Below, one piece after another: positions 13,390 through 63,527 of a stretch of DNA of 64,000 nt. How positions within the stretch are numbered: the stretch's first letter is position 1; each line of letters begins with the position of its first letter. The notes under the pieces are model-generated. The model was not told the DNA's origin. It saw only the letters and a program-made list of their open reading frames with translations, and did no database searches. The DNA lies in assembly GCA_966243015.1 (NCBI GenBank), contig CBIMES010000001.1:426076-490075 (forward strand), in the 5' to 3' direction. The DNA comes from an uncultured bacterium. Lineage in GTDB: Bacteria; Patescibacteriota; Minisyncoccia; Phycocordibacterales; UBA6065. The translations under genes and the position numbers were made by a program.

Positions 13390-13471
13390 AATGCAGAAAT
13401 TATAACACCACCCTTCACAAAAAAACACCGAGGGCCATTTACCCATAAAACCTGGCGCGCCCTTAAACCAC

Positions 13472-13815
13472 GGAGGATGAGAGATTCTGTCACGGGTAAT
13501 TTTCTGCCGAAAATTCCCGCGGCCCCGCCTCGTGCCGTCGCGTTCCTGCCTTCCCATAACTCATCCCCACGCAAAAGAAAAAACCGGTCAGACGGCCATG
13601 GGACGTCCTCTCGGTCTTTTGCGGAGGATGAGAGATTCGGTCCTTACAGGACCAGTACCCACGGTTGGATTTTACCTTCGCCGGGTACGGCTCGATAAAA
13701 TCTCAACCGAGCTTCGAATCTCTCACGCAGACGCAACGCGTCTGCTATCCTCCGCTTAATAAAATCGCCGCCATACGGCGGGATTTTAAAGGCGGAGGAT
13801 GAGAGATTCGAACTC
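13472..13815. repeat. Array of tRNA-Ser 3'-end-derived repeats (GGAGGATGAGAGATTC): direct copies at 13472-13487 and 13621-13640, the authentic tRNA 3' end at 13793-13815, and an inverted copy with a 22-nt hairpin insertion at 13711-13757
   Basis: Read directly. 13621-13757 forms a 137-bp unit with 19-bp terminal inverted repeats. Confidence 0.7.
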
Positions 13816-13879
13816 TCGGTGCCATTTCTGACACACAGTCTTTCCAGGACTGCGCACTAGACCACTATGCGAATCCTCC
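13793..13879 (-). tRNA. tRNA-Ser (anticodon GGA), class II with long variable arm; CCA not encoded
   Basis: Manual fold: acceptor GGAGGAT/ATCCTCC, D-stem GCA/TGC, anticodon stem CAGTC/GACTG with loop CTGGAAA, 5-bp variable stem, T-arm GAGAG-TTCGAAT-CTCTC. Confidence 0.8.
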
Positions 13880-20056: not shown

Positions 20057-20087
20057 AAAAAAGGCTCAGTGCACTGAGCCTTTTTTC
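20057..20087 (+). terminator. Intrinsic terminator aaaaaaGGCTCAGTGCACTGAGCCtttttt after rnj (copy 1 of the repeated hairpin family)
   Basis: Perfect 9-bp stem with a T-run. The same hairpin recurs at 35929, 42421, 43220 and 49899. Confidence 0.8.
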
Positions 20088-26683: not shown

Positions 26684-29600
26684 CTATTTGGAAGCCTGAA
26701 GGTCCTCCACGTAGGCCTTTACGAGGTACGAGAGCGACACCACGAGAACCGCGAGGAGATTGATGAGGCCGAGGGCAAGGACCCACGACATTCCAAGACC
26801 CGTGCTCTGGGTGAACCAGTCAGGGTCCTTCATAAAGGACATGGTGTTAAGGACATTAAGGACAGTTCCCGCCGCAAGACCCGTCGCTCCCTTGATAAAG
26901 GACATGCGAGTTGCGGCCCCGGTAAGACCTCGGGCGAAGATACCCCTGAGAATATAGGCCGTTCCGATGGTGATAAGCAGGACTATGAGAAGCGGATACC
27001 ACGGAATGCTCTTGAAGAAGTTGATTACCCCCTCAGAGAACGCTCCGAATACACCCGCGAGGTTCTCGAAGATTGATCCCGATGTGCTGGTTGCCGAGGT
27101 GGTAGCCATGCCGATGGCACCCTCGAAGTCGCCCGAGTTGTCGATGACAGGCTCCTCGGTTGGCTGAATGCCGATATCGAAGTCGAGATCACCTGGCTGA
27201 TAGATAGGATTCTCGTCACAGAAGAATCGGTTGATGTATGACGAGGTCGTGATATAGACGATACCAGTAGGCTCCGCGATGTTCCACGGGGCGAGGATCT
27301 CGTCAGCGTGTCGGGTCTGGAGGAGCATGACGGCCTGCTCGGTGGCGTCGTCAAAGAATCCGCTGATCTCGAGGTTAGTGCCCTCGTAGGTATTGAGGAA
27401 CCACTGGAGCTTTCGCACCTCGTTAGGATCGTTCTGAGATCCCTTTCGGAGATACGACACGAGGAAATCAGACGCTGGGCAGAAGTTTACAGTTGGAATG
27501 ACCGTCGTGATGGTCGTCGCGGTAGAGCATCCGAATCCTATGCACGGACCGCCGCTTCGTCCGCCGCCGCCTCCGCCACCCGTAGTGCCGGGAGGGGTCA
27601 CCGTGTCATCGTTATCGAAGTTAATGATAGAAACGCTCTGGGCAGGGAGGCCGTTGTAGTTTGCGTCCGTGCTGCTCGAAGGGCCCACGTTTACCGCGTA
27701 GGTAACGTCGCCGTCATCAACGGTATCGTCGACGCCCGTCACAATGACCGTCTGGTAGACGTTCCAGTTCGCGGGGGTGAAGGTGAGAGCCGCGACCGTG
27801 GTGCTTCCCTCCGTAGTGTCAGAGACGACAATCGGGAGAGTCACGTTACCCGTAGGTGCCGACGAGAGGACAACGGTGAAGGCCGCGGTCGCGCCCGCCT
27901 CGCTCGTAGTGAGGCCAGAGGTGTTTCCGAGAACGAGTCCAACGCCCGTGACGCCTCCCGTGATGGTTACGGTGAAGGTTCGAGCGGTAGAAGTTGCCCC
28001 GTGCACGTCTCGAGCAAACACGCCGAAGGTGTGAGGGCCTGATACCGTCCACGACATAGATCGGCTTACGGCTACGCCCGAAATGGTTACCGGAGTCCAC
28101 TCCTCGCCTGCCGAGGTCTCGATGGTCCCGTTGTTGTTCCAGTCAAAGCCGTACTGAATGTCATCGCCGTCTGCGTCAGTCGCAGTCGCGGTAAAGGTAT
28201 GAGAGACGTTTGCGGCCGCCGTAGTAGTGCCTGTAATCGAGTTAACTACCGGGGCGTTATTGCCTCCTGGATAGCAGCCTCCTCGAGGACCACAGTTGTC
28301 AGAAATAACGATAGTGTGAGACACACCAGCCGATCGGTTGCCGCTCGCATCCTCGGCGAACACCTTGAAAGTGTAGGTGCCGTCAGCAGACCAAGACTTC
28401 GAGCTGGTAGCGGCGGTTCCCGACGTCACGAACATGGTGTACGCGTCGATGGTTCCGTTGTTATCCCAGTCGAAGCCGTAGCGGACCGAGTCGCCGTCGG
28501 GGTCGGTGGCGGTAGCGCTGAAGGTATACGAGGTCGAAACATCTCCCGTCGTCGGACCACTTACAGCAAGACCGGTCGGCGCGCTGTTGCCGCCCGTACC
28601 ACCTCCCGAGGTGATGGTAATGGTGTGCGAGAGAGCCGAAGATCGCTCGCCCGCATTGTCCTCGGCGATGACCCTGAAGGTATAAGTTCCCGCCGCGCCC
28701 CATGAGTGAGAGGTCGTGGTTGAAACGCCCGATGCGCCAAAGGCCGTGTACTCCTCGTACGAGCCGTTGTTATCCCAGTCGAAGCCGTAGCGAACGGTAT
28801 CGCCCTCGGCGTCAGTCGCGCGAGTGGCGAAGTCATATGAAACGTTAACGGTTCCCGTCGTAGGACCGTTTACGGTGAAGTTGTCAGGGGCGGTATTTCC
28901 CGGGTAGCAGCCTCCTCGAGGGCCGCAGTTCTGGAGGGTGATGGTATGAGAGGTCGCGGCGGATCGGTTGCCGCTCGCGTCCTCCGCGAAAACCTTGAAA
29001 GTCTTTGCGCCCTCGTCGCTGAAGGTGTGCGAGAGGCTCATCGCCACGCCCGAAGTAGCGAGCGCGGTCCACTGGTCGATCGAGCCGTCGTTGTCCCAGT
29101 CGAAGCCGTAGCGGATCGAGTCGCCGTCGGGGTCAGTTGACTGAGCCGAGAACGAGTACGACACACCCGCATCTCCGCCCGTAGGTCCGACAACTACCGG
29201 TGCGGTAGGCGCGTCGTTGGTGGCAGGGCCGCCGCGGACGACAGCCTCGATGACGATCTGTCCGTGCGCGCCGTTTCCTCCGAGAGCCACGTCAGATCCG
29301 CCCGCGCCCGCCGCGGGGGCCACGCCGTCAGCTCCAGCGCCTGTGGTCGAAAGGGATCCGCCAGCGCCTCCGCGAGCTCCGTCGCCTCCGTCAGTCGACG
29401 AGACATTGCTCGCCGAATCAAAGGAAATCGCGGTAGCGGACTCTCCTGACTCGAGAGTGCGCCCAACAAGGCCCGCACCGCCCGCGCCTGTGAAGGCGGC
29501 GCCGTCAGCGGCAAGCGGGTTCACGGTGACGACCGTGTCGGCAGCAGTGCTGTCCGAGGTTACGCTCTCGTCTGGACCGGTGTAGCAGCCGCCTCGAGGA

Positions 29601-30334
29601 CCGCAGTTGTCCACGGTGACCGAAAGAGACGCAGATGCGGTGCCGCCAAGACCCGTACAGGTAAAAGTGACGGAACCCGAGGAGGTTCGAGTTACCGACT
29701 GAGAGCCCGAGGTCGGCTTCGCGCCAGAGATCATGCCTGATGCGGTGCACGAATCAGTGTGATTCGAAGACCATACGATGGTCGTTGACTGACCCGAGTT
29801 GAATCGCTTCGGGGTAGCACTGAGCGAGATGGTCGGCGCAGGAGCCTGGAGCTCAGTCCCCCTCTTGCCGCCGATTCCGCCGGCAGCGCTCGTAAGAGTG
29901 CTAGTTGACGAGCTAAACGAGGAAGCCTGGCCAGATCGGCCAGCGCCCTCCTCAGACGAAACACCCCCACGACCGACTACGGCCGTGAAGGTATCACCAG
30001 GGGTAACAAAGGCGTCATTCTCCGCGTATCCGCCGCCTCCGCCGCCGCCTCCGCCGAGGACATGAGAAGTGGTCGTCGCGCCCTTTCCGCCAGATCCGCC
30101 AGCACCCCACGTCTTGACGCGAATCTCAGTAACGCCGTCAGGAACGGTCCACGTAGTCGTTCCAGGAGTAGTAATCGTCTCGATAACCACAGTCTCGACA
30201 TGGCCGGGAGCGACCACGGGAAGCGTGAAGGCCGATGCAGCGATTGGCTGGAACAGCGACACCACGACCGCAAAAGAAAGGGCCGCGGAAAGCGCTTTCT
30301 GGGAGAATCTCTGGTTTTTCATGAATATATTCAT
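26684..30334 (-). CDS. Giant surface protein (1216 aa): signal peptide, Gly-rich region, 4 tandem PKD-like repeats separated by NCGPRGGCY linkers, Calx-beta-like domain, PG-binding-like domain, 2 C-terminal TM helices
   Basis: Repeated RYGFDWDNNG...GTYTF[KR]V[FI]AEDxxG[NE]RS units at aa 375-795. VDDTVDDGDVTYAVNV matches Calx-beta. VRKLQWFLNTYEGTNLEISGFFDDATEQAVMLLQ matches PG_binding. C-terminal hydrophobic helices at aa 1110-1130 and 1180-1205. Confidence 0.9.
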   Translation of the reverse strand: MNIFMKNQRFSQKALSAALSFAVVVSLFQPIAASAFTLPVVAPGHVETVVIETITTPGTTTWTVPDGVTEIRVKTWGAGGSGGKGATTTSHVLGGGGGGGGGYAENDAFVTPGDTFTAVVGRGGVSSEEGAGRSGQASSFSSSTSTLTSAAGGIGGKRGTELQAPAPTISLSATPKRFNSGQSTTIVWSSNHTDSCTASGMISGAKPTSGSQSVTRTSSGSVTFTCTGLGGTASASLSVTVDNCGPRGGCYTGPDESVTSDSTAADTVVTVNPLAADGAAFTGAGGAGLVGRTLESGESATAISFDSASNVSSTDGGDGARGGAGGSLSTTGAGADGVAPAAGAGGSDVALGGNGAHGQIVIEAVVRGGPATNDAPTAPVVVGPTGGDAGVSYSFSAQSTDPDGDSIRYGFDWDNDGSIDQWTALATSGVAMSLSHTFSDEGAKTFKVFAEDASGNRSAATSHTITLQNCGPRGGCYPGNTAPDNFTVNGPTTGTVNVSYDFATRATDAEGDTVRYGFDWDNNGSYEEYTAFGASGVSTTTSHSWGAAGTYTFRVIAEDNAGERSSALSHTITITSGGGTGGNSAPTGLAVSGPTTGDVSTSYTFSATATDPDGDSVRYGFDWDNNGTIDAYTMFVTSGTAATSSKSWSADGTYTFKVFAEDASGNRSAGVSHTIVISDNCGPRGGCYPGGNNAPVVNSITGTTTAAANVSHTFTATATDADGDDIQYGFDWNNNGTIETSAGEEWTPVTISGVAVSRSMSWTVSGPHTFGVFARDVHGATSTARTFTVTITGGVTGVGLVLGNTSGLTTSEAGATAAFTVVLSSAPTGNVTLPIVVSDTTEGSTTVAALTFTPANWNVYQTVIVTGVDDTVDDGDVTYAVNVGPSSSTDANYNGLPAQSVSIINFDNDDTVTPPGTTGGGGGGGRSGGPCIGFGCSTATTITTVIPTVNFCPASDFLVSYLRKGSQNDPNEVRKLQWFLNTYEGTNLEISGFFDDATEQAVMLLQTRHADEILAPWNIAEPTGIVYITTSSYINRFFCDENPIYQPGDLDFDIGIQPTEEPVIDNSGDFEGAIGMATTSATSTSGSIFENLAGVFGAFSEGVINFFKSIPWYPLLIVLLITIGTAYILRGIFARGLTGAATRMSFIKGATGLAAGTVLNVLNTMSFMKDPDWFTQSTGLGMSWVLALGLINLLAVLVVSLSYLVKAYVEDLQASK

Positions 30335-38757: not shown

Positions 38758-39171
38758 TTACACAATACGAATGCCCCTGAGCTCGGCGCGCAATTCCCGG
38801 TAGTTCGGCATCGCCCTGGCCACGAGATCCCAGAACCCCTGCGAGTGATTGAACTCTCCCCTGTGACAGAGCTCGTGAACGATGACATAGTCGGAGAGAT
38901 GCGCCGGCAGAAGGGCGATGCGGTAGTTGAAGTTGAGATTGCCGGACGAAGAGCAGCTCCCCCACCTGCTGCGCTGGTCGCGAATGGCGACCTTGCCGTA
39001 CGTGAATCCGTAGAACTGATTGAAGTGAGCGAGGCGGGCGTGGACGAGGGCGCGGGCGGATTCCCTGTGCACAAGATAGCTGGCGCGAGATGCGGCGGAC
39101 GGGCGACGGGCACGTCGCGGTCTCCGACGGACCTTCGTCGCGAACCTAACGCGCCAGAGCAAGTTTCTCAT
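38758..39171 (-). CDS. DUF45/YgjP-like Zn-dependent hydrolase (short form, HELCH motif)
   Basis: SRWGSCSSSGNLNFNYRIALLP...VIVHELCHRGEFNHS matches DUF45 (M48-like). It is only 137 aa and overlaps the GIY-YIG gene 3' end by 26 nt. Confidence 0.65.
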   Translation of the reverse strand: MRNLLWRVRFATKVRRRPRRARRPSAASRASYLVHRESARALVHARLAHFNQFYGFTYGKVAIRDQRSRWGSCSSSGNLNFNYRIALLPAHLSDYVIVHELCHRGEFNHSQGFWDLVARAMPNYRELRAELRGIRIV

Positions 39172-39394
39172 CGCGGGAGAGCTTCTTAATGCGAGCCTCC
39201 TCGACCGAGGCTGACGACCTGTCGGGAAAGGCCCTCGAGTACACGAGCCTCACCGGGCGACGGCTGCGGGTGTATTTTGCGCCCCTTGATCCAGGGGCGG
39301 CAGAGTTGTGCTCCTCCACCCTGCGGGCGAGGTCGGTCGTGATGCCCGTGTAGAGGGTGTTGTCGGAACAGAGGAGGATGTAGAGGTGGTACAT
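39146..39394 (-). CDS. GIY-YIG nuclease family protein (82 aa)
   Basis: YHLYILLCSDNTLYTGITTDLARRVEEH matches the GIY-YIG catalytic module. The ATG overlaps the DUF2075 stop codon (TAATG). Confidence 0.85.
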   Translation of the reverse strand: MYHLYILLCSDNTLYTGITTDLARRVEEHNSAAPGSRGAKYTRSRRPVRLVYSRAFPDRSSASVEEARIKKLSRDEKLALAR

Positions 39395-41364
39395 TAAATT
39401 TCCTTAAACCCAATACTTTTTAAGTAACCGTAGGTTTCGTCGTAAAATTCTGGGCTACGTGTCGAATCATTCGCATCTCCGTTGGGCACAACAATAACCA
39501 TGCCCTGTCGTGCACGAGTTAGCAAAACACGATAGGCGTTTTTCTGATATGTCTGCCTCTCTTCTTTTTTAATATTCTGCCATCTACTGCCAACAAAGGA
39601 ATAATGACCCCATGCATCTCCCGTATACCTAAAGTCCCCATCCCAAACCACACAAGACCAGTCGAGCTCAAGACCCTGAATGTCAAACTCAGTAGCAACA
39701 TCCTCCATGTAGTACGACGAACGAACATCGTCCTTTCCATCCAAAAACCAGTGAACCGGATCAACCGTTGACTTAACGAATATGGCATGCGGCCGTAGAC
39801 GCTCCGCCTGAGATGAGACGATCATCCCGTAACGCTCGCTTCCACGCGCATGTGTTTTAATCCAATCCTTTGCCATCTTAATGTCACGAGTGATTACTAT
39901 TGGATACTTTTCGTGTAACCCCTCCAAAGTTTTGCTTGCTTGCAACGGCCTTATATCAAGAACCTCTTTTACCAATTTAGAGACATTTTCAGCACGAAAA
40001 GAACGCATCGAAACCGCAAGGTGCAATTCGTCAATGAAATGAACATTTTTTTGGTTTTTAATTTTCTCAATAATTTCACCGCTACCGTATTCCGAGTCAG
40101 TGAGGCGTGGCGAAACATATATTTCCCATTCAGGGAAGGATCCATTGAGGCAATTTATCCATTCTTTTATACCTCCCTCACCCGTATGAATCTCCTGTCC
40201 GCCGCCGACAAGGCACACAACGGTCGCCCAATCATTGTGCCTATCCATACACGAAATAAGAAATTCTGGCTCTGAAAGATTAAAATCTTGCTGCCCTTTT
40301 TTCCTTCGCATGAAATCGACCGTCTGCTTTTTATCCCAAGCACGTTGCGCCTCATCAAAAAGTGCCACGTGCTCAATTGGCGCTTTCTGCCCCCGAAGAC
40401 AATCGTCTCTAAAGTGGTGAACGTTTTGGATAAACAAACTAACTTCACGAATTGCGTCTTTTTTTGTAAATCTATTTCCTTTTTCCTTTTCCCTTGCGAC
40501 ACGATCTCGCGCCAAAGCCTCTCGTAGAATCGAAACAAGAGGACCGTTCCCCGAAAGATACACGCTATATAAATCACTGTCCTTATCAAGGTGTTTTTGA
40601 GCCACATCAAGTCCGACAAGCGTCTTGCCCGCACCGGGAACACCGGTCACAAAACAAATCGATTTACGCCCATTTTTCTTAGAATCAGCTATAACGCCTG
40701 AAACACGAGCAACGGTGTTTTTGAGATTTATGGCACCCGCATCTGAACGAGAGATACTTTCAACTGCATGTCCGCGATAAAGCGACATTGCAGCTTCTAC
40801 AATCGTAGGTGTTGGGCTATATATGCCGTCTTCCCACTTACGTTGGTTTATTTTCCCTGAGTCAACAAATTTTTCGAGCAGAGAAAAAATATCTTTCACA
40901 CCCTCGGCATTGACAGCAATGGGCTGAAAAACCTTATCTTCTTGCTTCGAAAATTGAGGGGTTACGATAGTTTGTTTTGCCTCTGTTGCAACAAGAACAG
41001 GGGCAATGTATATATCATGGCTAGTGCTGTGAAAATTTTTGAGATCCAGGGCATAATCCCAGACTTGATCAAGTGCATATGAGGCATATGCCGATTCGCC
41101 CACCTTAAACTCAATAACGTATAAAGTGTTCCCGGTAATAACCACGGCGTCTATACGCCTTCCCATTCGGGGAATTGAGTATTCGAAATAAATAGCACCG
41201 TCCTTATTTTTTAACGCTTCCTTCAATAACCTGATCTGTGCAATCCACGTGTCTCGTTGGGCTTTGATCACATCAAAATCACTGCTTGCGGTGATCTTGC
41301 CAAGGACAGTATCGACGTCTTCACCTAGAAACGATTGTATCGTATTTGAGTAAAAGTGATTCAC
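39394..41364 (-). CDS. DUF2075 (Schlafen-like) nuclease-helicase: N-terminal PD-(D/E)xK-like module and P-loop SF1-like ATPase
   Basis: N-terminal RIDAVVITGNTLYVIEFKV (D...ExK), Walker A GVPGAGKT, C-terminal YRVLLTRARQGMVIVVP typical of the DUF2075 end. GC about 42% against a 60% background. Confidence 0.85.
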   Translation of the reverse strand: MNHFYSNTIQSFLGEDVDTVLGKITASSDFDVIKAQRDTWIAQIRLLKEALKNKDGAIYFEYSIPRMGRRIDAVVITGNTLYVIEFKVGESAYASYALDQVWDYALDLKNFHSTSHDIYIAPVLVATEAKQTIVTPQFSKQEDKVFQPIAVNAEGVKDIFSLLEKFVDSGKINQRKWEDGIYSPTPTIVEAAMSLYRGHAVESISRSDAGAINLKNTVARVSGVIADSKKNGRKSICFVTGVPGAGKTLVGLDVAQKHLDKDSDLYSVYLSGNGPLVSILREALARDRVAREKEKGNRFTKKDAIREVSLFIQNVHHFRDDCLRGQKAPIEHVALFDEAQRAWDKKQTVDFMRRKKGQQDFNLSEPEFLISCMDRHNDWATVVCLVGGGQEIHTGEGGIKEWINCLNGSFPEWEIYVSPRLTDSEYGSGEIIEKIKNQKNVHFIDELHLAVSMRSFRAENVSKLVKEVLDIRPLQASKTLEGLHEKYPIVITRDIKMAKDWIKTHARGSERYGMIVSSQAERLRPHAIFVKSTVDPVHWFLDGKDDVRSSYYMEDVATEFDIQGLELDWSCVVWDGDFRYTGDAWGHYSFVGSRWQNIKKEERQTYQKNAYRVLLTRARQGMVIVVPNGDANDSTRSPEFYDETYGYLKSIGFKEI

Positions 41365-41447
41365 GGCTTTTTTGTGGTTGTTGTTTAGGTATTATATTTA
41401 TACTAACACCCAACATACCTGAAAATCTCTTAGATTTCACACAAAAT

Positions 41448-41912
41448 TCACTTCGCGAGCCTGAATCTTCCGGTAATATTCCATGGTAGTCTTTTAAGAT
41501 TTTTCCTCTTAATATCATGCTCCCAAATCACCACCGTCTTCCACCCCTCCCTCTTAAGCGCCCTGAGATTTTTTCGATCCCTCGCCCTATTGCCCAATAT
41601 CTTATGTGACCAAAACTCGGTGTTAGTCTTGGGCATTCCCTTGGTACACTTCCTGCACCCGTGCCAGAAACAGCCGTTGATAATGATGGCAATCTTTCGC
41701 CCAGGAAAGGCGATGTCGGGCTTACCGGGGGCCTTCTTCCAGTGAAGTCGGTAGCCGCGAATGCCGAGCGAAGACAAATGCTTGCGCACGATAAGCTCAG
41801 GCTTCGTATTCTTGGACTTGTTAGCGAGCATCACGTTCCTCACCGCGATGCTTGTCGAAACGGGAGTCGGCGGACGTTTCGCAGGCTTCTTTTTTGATAA
41901 TTTCCTTATCAT
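41448..41912 (-). CDS. vsr: Very-short-patch-repair endonuclease (Vsr-like)
   Basis: KPDIAFPGRKIAIIINGCFWHGC and later WEHD match the Vsr family. No DNA m5C methyltransferase gene is adjacent. Confidence 0.85.
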   Translation of the reverse strand: MIRKLSKKKPAKRPPTPVSTSIAVRNVMLANKSKNTKPELIVRKHLSSLGIRGYRLHWKKAPGKPDIAFPGRKIAIIINGCFWHGCRKCTKGMPKTNTEFWSHKILGNRARDRKNLRALKREGWKTVVIWEHDIKRKNLKRLPWNITGRFRLAK

Positions 41913-41966: not shown

Positions 41967-42317
41967 CTATTTAACCCTAAAAACCTCCCCTCTCCCCGTC
42001 CTCCCCACCGACACGACAAAGCCCTCCGCGGCGAGGGTGGCGAGATACCGTTCCGCCTGGGCGCGGTCGAAGCCAAGCATGTCCTGCACGTCAGACACCG
42101 AGACCTCGAGGCGATGCCTGACGAGCACTCTCACCCGCTCGAGGTTCTCGCGCCTCGCGAAAGCGTCCTCCTCGGGCGCAGATGGTGTGACGCCGGCAAC
42201 CACGCCCGCCTCGCTCATCTCCGTCGACCGTCTGCGCACGACGTAGACAATGATCGTGACGGCGGCAGCGAGGACGAGGAGGGCAGCGATGATGAGGACG
42301 ACAGGGACGATATTCAT
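41967..42317 (-). CDS. Membrane-anchored winged-HTH protein (paralog A)
   Basis: N-terminal TM helix and C-terminal wHTH-like DVQDMLGFDRAQAERYLATLAAEGFVVSVGRTGRGEVFRV. Paralogous to 43267..43647. Confidence 0.6.
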   Translation of the reverse strand: MNIVPVVLIIAALLVLAAAVTIIVYVVRRRSTEMSEAGVVAGVTPSAPEEDAFARRENLERVRVLVRHRLEVSVSDVQDMLGFDRAQAERYLATLAAEGFVVSVGRTGRGEVFRVK

Positions 42318-42412
42318 GGTTGGTTTGCGTTACATCTAATCTGTCCTAAAAGGATAATAAAAAGAAGGTAAAGTTTTGGTAAAGAAACCGATGCCCTCCC
42401 TATCACACAACA

Positions 42413-42443
42413 AAAAGAAAGGCTCAGTCCACTGAGCCTTTCT
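42413..42443 (-). terminator. Terminator aaaaagaaaGGCTCAGTCCACTGAGCCtttctc (copy 3 of the hairpin family, CC-loop variant) downstream of the NYN gene
   Basis: Read directly. It is 30 nt identical to the copy at 43211-43243. Confidence 0.75.
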
Positions 42444-42611
42444 CAAAATCAACCCCTCGGCAAGGGGTAAAACGGATGTTTACTTTTGACCAAAATTATA
42501 TATACTCATGATATCTTCTGGTTTATTCATTTTGACCAGAAGGGCACTACATCCAAGGGCGGCCCTCCGAAAGGAGGGCCGCTTTGTATGTGTGCTCACT
42601 TGTTTCCCTTA

Positions 42612-43184
42612 CTAAACCGAGGCCCTCCGCTCAAGATCCCTTCCCCATATATCACCCTCTATAAGAAGAACGTCATAATACCCATCAGACCCTGTACGGA
42701 GCTCTTGGGATACATTGTTTCTCGAGGAGAATACACAGGCCTTCTTTCCCCTGCTTCTCACATAGGTGATAAGGGCGAGGAAATCTGAGTCTCCGGTAAA
42801 GAACACGGCCGTATCGTATACCGAGACGTTGTGCACGACATCGATGGTAATTTCGACATCCATATTGCCCTTCTCCTTGATCAAATCTCCTTGGGCGCCC
42901 TGCACGGGTATTCGCTTGAGCTCTTTCTTGACGACCGTAAAGCCAAGCCCTTTCTTGAGGTACGTGTAAAAACGATGCTTGCCGTCGAGATCATAATCCC
43001 GGGTCCCTTTCGCGGGATAGGCCGTATAGTAAAACACCTTGAGCTCAGTTGCCGAAAATTCACGGACGAGAAAGGCCCTGAGCTTCTCATAGTCAAACAT
43101 CTTGCCGCGTGCCTTCTGGGCCTGCCAGAGATTGCTCGCGTCGATGAAAACATAAACACGGTTGTTTTGCGGTAAGTCGACCAT
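42612..43184 (-). CDS. NYN-domain (LabA-like, PIN-fold) nuclease family protein
   Basis: VYVFIDASNLW and TGDSDF motifs of the NYN/LabA family. Confidence 0.85.
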   Translation of the reverse strand: MVDLPQNNRVYVFIDASNLWQAQKARGKMFDYEKLRAFLVREFSATELKVFYYTAYPAKGTRDYDLDGKHRFYTYLKKGLGFTVVKKELKRIPVQGAQGDLIKEKGNMDVEITIDVVHNVSVYDTAVFFTGDSDFLALITYVRSRGKKACVFSSRNNVSQELRTGSDGYYDVLLIEGDIWGRDLERRASV

Positions 43185-43210
43185 GACGCCGTGATTCTAT
43201 CATACGAGGG

Positions 43211-43243
43211 ATAAAGAAAGGCTCAGTCCACTGAGCCTTTCTT
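43211..43243 (-). terminator. Terminator ataaagaaaGGCTCAGTCCACTGAGCCtttcttc (copy 4 of the hairpin family, CC-loop variant) downstream of wHTH paralog B
   Basis: Read directly. Confidence 0.75.
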
Positions 43244-43266
43244 CGTCGCCCTATTGAGCCCTATTT

Positions 43267-43647
43267 CTAGCGCACCGCCCTGTACGTCACGCCCCTTCCC
43301 TTGTCGCCGTGGCGGACGAGCAGACCCTCGGCCTCAAGCTCGTGCAGGTACCGCGTGGCCGTCGCGTCAGAGACGCCGAGAGCCCGCTCTACGTCGTTGT
43401 TCGCGATCTCCTCGCTCTCGTACGCGAGGTCGAGCACGTCCTGGAGATGCTTCTGCCTGCGGGCCTGGATCGGCGTGAAGTGGTCGAGATTGCCCCGCTC
43501 CTCGTGCCTGTGCCAGAAGAGGAGGAAGAAGACGGTGAGGACCGCGAAGAAGAGCGCGAGCATCGGGTCGATGAAGGCGACAACGAGGACGAATCCCGCC
43601 ATGAGGGTGCCAATCGTCTTTTTTGAGATCTCTATGTCCATGCCCAC
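43267..43647 (-). CDS. Membrane-anchored winged-HTH protein (paralog B)
   Basis: Two TM helices and C-terminal DVERALGVSDATATRYLHELEAEGLLVRHGDKGRGVTYRAV, which aligns with paralog A. Confidence 0.6.
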   Translation of the reverse strand: MGMDIEISKKTIGTLMAGFVLVVAFIDPMLALFFAVLTVFFLLFWHRHEERGNLDHFTPIQARRQKHLQDVLDLAYESEEIANNDVERALGVSDATATRYLHELEAEGLLVRHGDKGRGVTYRAVR

Positions 43648-63117: not shown

Positions 63118-63527
63118 GGCCCCGCGCGCGCAAAAAGACCCCTGGAGGCTGAAAGCCCCAGGGGTCGAATGCGTCCGTTATGCTGCCTCCGGCCAACCTT
63201 GCGGTCGGCTACCCGTCATAGCCTTGGTGGGCTTTTACCCCGCCAACAAGCTGATAGGACACGAACGCCTGTGAAGTGCTCTTTGCGCGTGAAGCGTAAA
63301 GACTACGATGAACTCTGCGCGAGTTAGGAAACGCAGCCCCTCGTGATCCGGGAAGGTCCGGGACACCTTCCCTTATGCCCGAAGACATACTCCACTGTCG
63401 CTGATTCGCGTATTACTCGCACAAGCCCGAGGGCCTGGGCAGCGCTGGCATCTACTGACAGTCTACGCACCTTTGACTTCGCGTCAAATCTTTGCCGTAA
63501 TCACTTTATTAGGGTAATCTGGGACAC

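Follow-up and report, generated by a model that had tools for sequence, protein, structure and literature searches.

The locus described here raises the question of whether a nuclease gene that lies between identical palindromic repeats and two paralogous regulator genes works together with those regulators or has been inserted between them. It occupies part of a 64-kb stretch of DNA (the window) from an uncultured bacterium of the Patescibacteria, in which a gene for a LabA-like NYN protein and a structured intergenic region are bracketed by two copies of a 30-nt repeat and, outside these, by two genes for proteins with a predicted membrane anchor and a winged helix-turn-helix domain, here called wHTH-A and wHTH-B. 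All three genes are closely spaced on the minus strand, and at least seven independent metagenome assemblies of one population show the region at 100% identity. Comparison with related loci indicates that the relevant unit consists of the NYN gene and a convergent gene for a small RNA (sRNA), and that the wHTH genes are bystander host flanks rather than parts of the module. We hold this structural and evolutionary description with high confidence. The best overall explanation, which we consider probable, is a selfish two-gene module that was inserted with duplication of a terminator and whose sRNA would control the nuclease.

A conserved small RNA gene converges on the NYN gene

Our comparison covers 80 NYN loci from divergent Patescibacteria of different GTDB species (some counts cover 79 of them). 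A blastn search with the NYN 3′ intergenic region matches nearly all of these loci, always directly past the NYN stop codon, and the conserved element lies directly 3′ of NYN in 80 of 80, at 0–80 nt from the stop codon. The 80 sequences were aligned in the orientation opposite to NYN (alignment A1, with A2 as its trimmed version), and the element is represented by a covariance model, R1. In the window it corresponds to a gene of ~75 nt on the plus strand (~42513..42588), arranged tail-to-tail with NYN and delimited by conservation, covariation, and a promoter and terminator of its own. A promoter scan places this promoter at 42479..42506, with a −35 element (TTTACT, 42479-42484) and a −10 element (TATACT, 42501-42506) separated by a 16-nt spacer. 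In A1 the two elements read TTGAC and TATACT at sigma-70 spacing, with the RNA start ~7 nt later; the TTG of the −35 and the TA...T of the −10 reach 90% conservation or more across the 80 sequences and keep a fixed distance from the RNA start. The predicted transcript begins with hairpin P1 (42515-42523/42534-42542; 9–10 bp in the family) and continues through a near-invariant, single-stranded linker (GGCACUACAUCCAA, 42543-42556; family consensus GGGUAUUACAUCCAAG). It closes with hairpin P2 (42557-42568/42573-42584), which has a GAAA loop in the window; across the family, P2 consists of 12 bp, mostly a GNRA loop and a U run, and forms an intrinsic terminator.

The fold is accompanied by extensive covariation. 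RNAalifold predicts 24 pairs; for 11 of them compensatory changes are present, in as many as 35 sequences. In A2, 98.2% of 1638 cells are paired, compared with 41–66% in controls with slid partners; double changes are seen in 152 cells, where shuffles give 47 ± 5, and 10 sRNA pairs show such changes. The structure is also strand-specific, as pairing falls to 83.6% when the alignment is read on the NYN strand: 245 G-U cells would become A-C mismatches there, which indicates that the RNA is made from the plus strand. The window copy folds with a minimum free energy of −39.8 kcal/mol (z −5.9). Searching the window with R1 returns one full-length match (82 bits, E 2.5e-18) and a 24-nt fragment at the palindromic P2 on the minus strand (18.5 bits). 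Each of the 80 loci holds one copy, with an extra weak match of 28 bits in L053. Mean column identity of the sRNA is 79% with 19 invariant columns, and the GGAGGG that the 3′ arm of P2 spells on the NYN strand is invariant. We interpret the element as a structured small RNA gene, with predicted transcription, on the combined evidence of covariation, strand-specific structure, and its own promoter and terminator.

An initial annotation of the window had suspected an associated small RNA within 42440-42612, and the conserved sRNA gene lies there. The same annotation took the structured region for the 3′ tail of NYN, which does not hold, since the element folds and covaries on the opposite strand and has its own promoter. 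Its two strong hairpins are found at 42452-42468 and 42556-42585. The motif TTTGACCA, which had been noted as duplicated, does occur twice in the window and nowhere else in it, but the two occurrences do not form a functional pair: the copy at 42485 belongs to the promoter spacer, that at 42531 to the P1 loop and 3′ arm.

No Rfam 15 family matched the element when the whole window was searched at the gathering threshold, the region 42300-43300 yielded nothing relevant at E ≤ 10, and gathering-level searches at the element in 16 other loci were equally without a match. ARAGORN detected no tRNA or tmRNA at the element. The sRNA belongs to no RNA family described in Rfam 15 and is apparently undescribed; it would add a new family with textbook covariation. 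To our knowledge, almost no regulatory RNAs are known from the Patescibacteria, or Candidate Phyla Radiation (CPR). A viral origin was considered and rejected, as the 25 16-mer matches in IMG/VR all lack the surrounding hairpins and are due to chance.

In 18 of 79 loci, an exact DnaA box (TTATCCACA, in one orientation or the other) is present at −61 to −45 from the sRNA start, just upstream of the −35 element (among others in L012, L027, L034, L041, L046, L055, L056, L058, L059, L081, L082, L084, and L087). These boxes make up 18 of the 28 exact DnaA boxes in 576 kb. The window has no DnaA box at this position upstream of the sRNA.

The NYN protein is a predicted nuclease with an intact active site

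The NYN gene (42612..43184, minus strand) encodes a LabA-like, PIN-fold protein of 190 aa. Residues 9-171 match Pfam family PF01936 (E 1.9e-19; 71.1 bits against a cutoff of 24.2), and the sequence also matches PDB entry 2QIP (E 7e-7). The AlphaFold model of the protein has a predicted local distance difference test score (pLDDT) of 78.8; 2QIP is its top fold match in the PDB (E 2.8e-9, TM 0.65–0.74), and T5 flap endonuclease follows at a greater distance. Among the fold neighbours are thus both an NYN protein that is uncharacterised and a nuclease acting on DNA flaps. Seven residues (D15, N18, D109, E111, D132, S133, and D134) are invariant among 25 NYN homologs, and homologs across Patescibacteria share 59–74% identity. 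We assign the protein as a nuclease with intact catalytic residues, for which activity and an RNA or DNA substrate are predicted only.

A survey of the PIN-like superfamily lists the function of the LabA-like group NYN.COG1432 as unknown (PMC5499597). The protein described here resembles that group in its Pfam match, its fold, and its conserved acidic residues. It differs from the group at large in forming a tightly conserved subfamily within Patescibacteria (60–74% identity) that always has the sRNA gene alongside, an RNA partner of a kind that has not been described for the family. Our literature search found no paper joining NYN proteins with Patescibacteria or CPR and none describing an NYN-associated RNA. 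LabA-type NYN proteins form a large family without established function, and the invariantly linked sRNA offers a first concrete handle on one of its subfamilies.

Expression of NYN can be tentatively read from the sequence ahead of its start codon. An extended −10 element, TGATAGAAT (43194..43202, minus strand), ends 9 nt before the NYN ATG, and the pattern TGnTAnnnT stands 6–9 nt before the start codon in 16 of 79 NYN loci, the window included; the start codon in these cases is mostly ATG, with GTG in two loci. Because the element abuts the ATG, the arrangement suggests that the NYN mRNA is leaderless or nearly so. A further extended −10-like sequence, AAAATGAAGATTTTGTGGGATGATTT, was seen 6–8 nt before the NYN ATG in L013, L054, L065, L066, and L078. 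In L065 and L078 it recurs before a downstream gene that is non-orthologous, a pattern that would fit a module that duplicates a promoter facing outwards or brings one with it.

One NYN locus stands apart taxonomically. L015, on a 404-kb contig of the cultured Bacteroidota Niastella vici DJ57, encodes an NYN protein with 66% identity together with an sRNA scoring 90 bits; the module could extend beyond Patescibacteria, or the record could be contaminated.

The bracketing repeats belong to a family of terminator hairpins

The repeat AAAGAAAGGCTCAGTCCACTGAGCCTTTCT occurs exactly twice on the plus strand of the window, at 42414-42443 and 43213-43242, where no occurrence is expected (100 shuffles). 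It is the second-longest direct repeat of the 64 kb and the sole intergenic one with a spacing of 300-2500 nt. The initial annotation had placed identical 30-nt repeats on both sides of NYN, which is correct apart from an offset of 1–2 nt in its coordinates, and it had rightly set their loop apart from that of three further copies of the hairpin. These three, with the stem GGCTCAG-TGCA-CTGAGCC, are at 20063, 35928, and 49899; all are intergenic with A/T runs alongside, and they end three other genes of the window. The TCCA loop is limited to the bracketing pair. The two bracketing copies agree at 30 of 30 nt, loop variant and flanks included, whereas loop and flanks differ in the other three.

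Both bracketing copies have the appearance of terminators on the minus strand. The left copy (43213..43242), a member of the GGCTCAG-NNNN-CTGAGCC family, forms a hairpin after wHTH-A, 24 nt past its stop codon; read from 43242 to 43213, it has the same stem as the right copy and a weaker tail (TTTATCCC). We propose that it is the original insertion target or the duplicate of that target. The right copy (42414..42443) marks the other edge of the inserted block. Read from 42444 to 42415, it has the features of a strong intrinsic terminator, with a 13-bp stem followed by TTTGTTGT. The block between the repeats measures 769 bp and contains the NYN gene and the sRNA gene.

The hairpin family accounts for ~5 of the ~17 strong terminator-like hairpins in the window. 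Its palindromes, written GGCTCAG-TSCA-CTGAGCC (20063, 35928, 49899, 42421, and 43220), end roughly one in four of the window's genes with strong terminators. In being GC-rich, flanked by A/T runs, present five times in 64 kb, and located at gene 3′ ends, they resemble repetitive extragenic palindromic (REP)-like elements and other recurrent terminator palindromes; the bracketing pair differs from these in sharing loop and flanks and in bordering lineage-specific DNA. A role as a DNA-uptake sequence was also considered for the hairpin. GGCTCAG occurs 18 times on both strands, 10 of these within the five hairpins, and since the 7-mer is not enriched outside them, it is better described as a recurrent terminator than as an uptake signal.

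The wHTH genes flank a variable slot

wHTH-A (43267..43647, minus strand) encodes a small protein whose N-terminal segment is hydrophobic and whose C-terminal part is a winged helix-turn-helix; gene callers place its ATG at 43641, which gives 124 aa. A sequence scan finds a promoter-like site, TTGCCG-16-TAGAAT with an upstream TG, at 43675-43648. wHTH-B (41967..42317, minus strand), its paralog, has one N-terminal transmembrane (TM) helix and a wHTH domain, with a promoter-like site at 42383-42354. As initially annotated, the two are TM-wHTH paralogs outside the repeats: they share 33% identity over 112 residues (E 3e-12), and their N-termini are strongly hydrophobic, with KD19 maxima of 3.29 and 2.63, the latter in wHTH-A. 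Pfam matches are weak (HTH_IclR, MarR, Fe_dep_repress, and DUF977 at 1e-4 to 1e-5, some just below cutoff). Both proteins have the features of membrane-anchored wHTH regulators, with DNA binding as a prediction.

We compared the slot with contigs of the window's relatives, L237/L238, L239, and L240/L241. Orthologs of wHTH-A are present at 88% (L237), 67% (L239), and 62% (L240) identity; the protein has few homologs in all, and none of these adjoins NYN. An ortholog of wHTH-B (60%) is found in L239, between different cargo and Vsr, and is absent from L237 and L240. In L237/L238 the order is Pif1, PDT, PDH, wHTH-A, a 456-nt spacer with a small open reading frame (ORF), and Vsr. In L239 two unrelated genes stand between wHTH-A and wHTH-B, the first of 287 aa and on the opposite strand, the second of 159 aa, and Vsr follows wHTH-B. 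L240/L241 has wHTH-A, a DEAD-box helicase, Vsr, and a PDC-S02-like gene. Neither NYN nor an R1 match was found on the contigs of these relatives (L237-L241).

DNA homology between the window and its relatives stops at ~43283, ~16 nt before the wHTH-A stop codon, and in L239 restarts at 42386, in the wHTH-B promoter region and 28 nt beyond the right repeat. The window-specific DNA (~42387-43282) is thus the repeat-bracketed block plus 25–40 nt on each side. No direct repeats were found around the different cargo of L239. The inserted nuclease cassette or small mobile module considered in the initial annotation agrees well with these results, given that relatives keep the flanks with other content in the slot and that genome-specific repeats bracket the module elsewhere. 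Two of its other proposals fare less well. The idea of a duplicated regulator-terminator unit conflicts with the age of the paralogs: they are only 33% identical and separated before the split from L239, whose orthologs are at 67% and 60%, while the repeats are 100% identical, so the repeats are not relics of the wHTH duplication. The proposal that NYN acts with the membrane wHTH proteins is contradicted by relatives that have wHTH genes without NYN and by the scarcity of wHTH-like genes near NYN, with one within 4 kb in only 3 of 80 loci.

One of these loci, L056 (positions 6-100 and 907-1202), echoes the flanks of the window: the module lies at the 5′ end of a TM-wHTH-like gene whose first 60–80 nt are duplicated upstream of NYN. 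At 3 of 80 loci, the association is not statistically supported.

The surroundings of the slot are themselves variable. A low-GC block (39394-41912; 44% GC, and 0.41 at third codon positions, GC3) holds a gene for a 656-aa NERD/Schlafen-type helicase, followed by Vsr, and a GIY-YIG gene adjoins it at 39146-39394. The 656-aa protein matches the PADLOC candidate PDC-S41 end to end (E 6.6e-285). Since different genes follow Vsr in the relatives, the region looks like a defence island. The slot may be described as a variable, defence-island-like region in which the module adjoins Vsr and the PDC-S41 candidate.

Recurrent flanking duplications point to insertion of the pair

Within one metagenome-assembled genome, the module is present twice (L038 and L063, on JAUYAT010000033 and JAUYAT010000054). 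The two NYN proteins are 95.6% identical, and at the DNA level the copies are 91.5% identical across a stretch of just 745 bp that begins at the NYN start and ends shortly after the sRNA promoter; beyond it, on both sides, the sequences are unrelated. In composition, too, the gene departs from its surroundings: NYN GC is on average 6.4 points below the flanks (n=49), and in the window its GC3 is 0.62 against 0.80–0.89 in flanking genes.

None of the 80 NYN loci shares flanking genes with the window, and the identity of their NYN proteins to the one encoded there is only 59–73%. Elsewhere, the immediate neighbours are housekeeping and restriction-modification genes; the latter are the commonest families (N6_Mtase, HSDR_N, Eco57I, N6_N4_Mtase, MmeI, ResIII, Type ISP, and DpnI), yet most neighbours are not restriction-modification genes. 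A conserved third gene was sought by clustering of flanking ORFs and rejected, the largest cluster reaching 7 of 79 loci.

Perfect direct repeats tightly bracket the module in 11 of 79 loci (103, 44, 43, 37, 37, 34, 30, 27, 25, 17, and 17 nt), and in five more they bracket the module together with one extra gene (104, 40, 38, 31, and 29 nt). Flanking repeats thus occur in about 20% of loci at 17–104 nt, with a sequence that differs from genome to genome; in control regions the longest shared substring is ~8 nt. The 103-nt repeat belongs to L034 and the 44-nt repeat to L083. An independent set of 44 metagenome loci has flanking repeats in 7, among them one of 69 nt (L125) and one of 43 nt. The duplicated sequence is not of one kind: it is a terminator in the window and L055, a promoter or 5′ untranslated region (UTR) in L078 and L065, a gene 3′ end in L051, and the 5′ end of a TM-wHTH-like gene in L056. 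Several duplications run on as imperfect repeats for 60–150 nt. The right junction often falls 32–36 nt beyond the sRNA −35 element (5 of 12 cases, window included).

Most simply, the 30-nt repeat of the window would be a terminator duplicated when the module inserted. Of the features of an insertion sequence, transposon, or integron cassette, the target duplication is present, and a transposase or integrase and defined ends are not. The insertion could have come about, for example, by fill-in of a long staggered break, by a single crossover that integrated a circular intermediate, or by illegitimate recombination in the course of transformation. The pair might go further and constitute a previously unrecognised class of autonomous mobile element, ~0.75 kb in size and resident in Patescibacteria, although we think this unlikely. 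Such an element would insert between genes or at gene ends with target duplications of 17–104 nt, and insertion or post-segregational maintenance would involve the nuclease, whose fold is related to that of flap endonucleases, or the RNA, or the two together. Whatever the route, the recurrent genome-specific duplications suggest gene movement in reduced genomes without a recognisable recombinase.

A model for the module and the points that weigh against it

In the model we prefer, the module would have inserted behind the wHTH-A terminator and ahead of wHTH-B, duplicating the 30-nt hairpin. NYN would be expressed from the extended −10 element abutting its ATG, and its transcripts would read antisense through the sRNA gene to the minus-strand terminators at 42468-42452 and 42444-42415. 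The first of these (42452..42468, minus strand), identified by terminator scan and minus-strand folding, consists of ACCCCTTGCCGAGGGGT then TGATTTTG; both NYN-sense terminators of the window lie beyond the sRNA promoter, and P2 read in the NYN sense has no U run after it. Since NYN has no terminator before the sRNA gene, its 3′ UTR would be fully complementary to the sRNA. The sRNA promoter, for its part, would fire head-on into NYN transcription, and collision and antisense pairing could together hold the nuclease level down.

The near-invariant linker of 14–17 nt and the invariant top of P2 suggest an extra sequence-specific partner of the sRNA, most plausibly the NYN protein. Such a second partner is likely because conservation of the linker and the P2 top is not explained by cis-antisense pairing and the linker has no match to the NYN start. 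NYN and sRNA might then act as a toxin-antitoxin (TA) or addiction module with an RNA antidote, and addiction behaviour would explain why they travel as a unit. This selfish, TA-like function is suggested by the likely second partner together with the mobile, defence-adjacent distribution; we put it forward tentatively, as a possibility that falls short of being probable. The analysis shows directly how the module is built, its conservation, covariation, and promoter, the variability of the slot, and the recurrence of flanking duplications; transcript overlap, regulation, toxicity, and the mechanism of insertion are features that we infer.

Several observations weigh against this account. Its core elements, namely the sRNA transcript, readthrough from NYN, and regulation, are predictions. 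A NYN-sense terminator follows the sRNA gene in only 11 of 79 loci, and the NYN transcripts of most genomes may run on into the next gene of the same direction. Pairing of the sRNA linker with the NYN translation start was tried as a mode of control and discarded, with −10.6 kcal/mol compared with −11.1 kcal/mol for shuffled sequences and no preferred site. A search from the sRNA side, a 16-mer scan of metagenomes, yielded 75 genuine copies; 64 have a convergent NYN within 250 nt, which speaks for the pair, but 11 (15%) have other neighbours without an adjacent NYN, and the RNA may thus serve some role by itself. The DnaA box hints at cell-cycle control rather than addiction, and NYN is unusually conserved for a toxin (60–74% identity across phyla). 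On the side of mobility, no transposase, integrase, or recombinase is among the called genes within ±10 kb, and no terminal inverted repeats are present. Junction positions vary, the left one falling at distances of 5–166 nt from the NYN ATG. An empty-site allele with a single hairpin was not found among the 14 population contigs with wHTH-B, all of which carry the module where they are long enough. Membership of the hairpin in a terminator family leaves it conceivable that the two copies arose separately. Sequenced plasmids hold no close NYN homolog, only distant NYN proteins at 30–34% identity, and phage genomes gave no tblastn match to NYN.

Alternative explanations

A first set of alternatives concerns what the module is made of and whether it moved. 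The repeats could be plain terminators, two members of the hairpin family that end wHTH-A and a resident NYN gene, with no insertion at all and with their identity due to local gene conversion or to chance within the family. The stem does end three other genes of the window, the family supplies ~5 of ~17 strong terminators, and both copies sit at minus-strand gene 3′ ends with an intrinsic-terminator-like form. We nevertheless judge this quite unlikely, as it has to contend with the match at 30 of 30 nt that extends over loop and flanks, unlike the other three copies; with the position of the copies at the exact edges of DNA that is genome-specific in comparison with relatives; with unrelated flanking duplications of the module in about 20% of other genomes; and with the deviating GC3 of NYN. 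Far less credible is a three-gene module of NYN and the two membrane wHTH proteins, in which the structured region would be the NYN 3′ tail. The shared strand and close spacing would suit it, as would L056, in which a TM-wHTH-like gene has the module at its 5′ end, and L026, in which a wHTH-like gene follows ~550 nt downstream. It is contradicted by the 77 of 80 NYN loci without a wHTH-like gene within 4 kb, by relatives that keep wHTH-A (and in L239 also wHTH-B) without NYN, by the separate terminator and promoter-like site of each gene, and by the folding and covariation of the structured region on the opposite strand.

The remaining alternatives concern what the conserved element does. The most serious of them is that the sRNA acts in trans in a cellular role of its own, for instance as a DnaA-controlled regulator or a protein-sequestering RNA, and lies next to NYN through co-inheritance or a shared terminator rather than to control it. 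Its conservation far exceeds the needs of cis-antisense control, it has an independent promoter and terminator, some metagenome copies lack an adjacent NYN, and the DnaA box recurs just upstream of the −35 element. The 80 of 80 NYN genes of the subfamily with the sRNA 0–80 nt from the stop codon, where other synteny is lost, speak for a tighter bond, as does the movement of the pair as one 745-bp unit; moreover, no target was identified, the linker being no more complementary to the NYN start region, the candidate that was compared, than the shuffled controls are. On balance we regard a trans-acting role as rather unlikely, though it deserves weight. It is most improbable that the element instead acts in the NYN sense, either as a 3′ UTR structure or as a Shine-Dalgarno sequence and start-stop mini-ORF directly past the NYN stop codon, with GGAGG ~11 nt upstream of ATG-TAA/TAG/TGA. 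Read in that sense, the linker (42543-42556; columns 36-42 of A2) spells GGATG with a stop codon right behind it in 76 of 80 sequences, all three stops being used, and the GGAGGG of the P2 3′ arm is invariant. Set against this are the loss of pairing on that strand, where G-U cells turn into A-C mismatches, and the conserved −35 and −10 elements, which fit the other strand only; the missing non-stop CC combination is not significant (~1 expected), and four sequences have ATG-TTA. The start-stop after the invariant GGAGGG may be a coincidence or may reflect a second function on the other strand.

Comparison with known systems

Convergent type I TA loci with overlapping 3′ ends include par of pAD1 (Fst/RNA II) and TxpA/RatA and BsrG/SR4 of Bacillus subtilis. 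The module resembles them in its short structured sRNA, predicted to be transcribed from its own promoter towards the putative toxin gene, and in its compact two-gene form and occurrence in variable regions; its 3′ ends may, as in those loci, overlap or share a terminator hairpin. It departs from type I in that the putative toxin is a 190-aa soluble NYN nuclease rather than a small hydrophobic peptide, and in an sRNA far more conserved than antisense pairing needs; toxicity and RNA-RNA pairing are putative. Type III systems (ToxIN, CptIN, and TenpIN) likewise combine a ribonuclease-type protein with a dedicated, conserved, structured RNA. For such systems, which are often linked to phage defence, a sequence-conserved RNA is expected from direct recognition between protein and RNA. 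In type III loci, however, the RNA consists of tandem repeats, is encoded ahead of the toxin gene and on its strand, and is processed by a toxin of the ToxN/AbiQ fold, whereas the RNA of the module is single-copy, downstream, and on the opposite strand, and its protein has the PIN/NYN fold. If the module does prove to be an addiction or defence module with an RNA antidote, it would represent a new TA architecture, pairing a PIN-fold protein with a convergent single-copy RNA.

Small mobile elements also use structured RNAs: RNA-OUT of IS10 and art200 of IS200 provide antisense control of transposase, and TnpB and IscB are nucleases carried together with an omega-RNA. The module shares with these the format of a small, in its case putatively mobile, unit with a nuclease-type protein, a structured RNA at one end, and a target duplication. 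It differs from them in lacking a DDE, HUH, or RuvC transposase, terminal inverted repeats, and a variable guide segment in the RNA, and its duplications are much longer (17–104 nt) and variable in length.

Other features of the window

Some features of the window lie away from the module. The 17–19-nt 3′ end of tRNA-Ser(GGA) (13791-13879, minus strand) occurs three times, at 13471, 13622, and 13792, with spacings of 151 and 171 nt. These repeats adjoin the end of a 1455-aa ORF and resemble att-site remnants of tRNA integrations. Near the end of the window, at 63190-63419 on the minus strand, only a 230-nt fragment of bacterial small-subunit rRNA was detected (model positions 107-310); the gene may be interrupted by insertions, which are common in Patescibacteria. 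Internal direct repeats, finally, occur in a 1216-aa ORF at 26684-30334 (period ~309–633 nt) and in a small ORF at 547-942 (period 141–156 nt), both of which represent repetitive proteins unrelated to the module.

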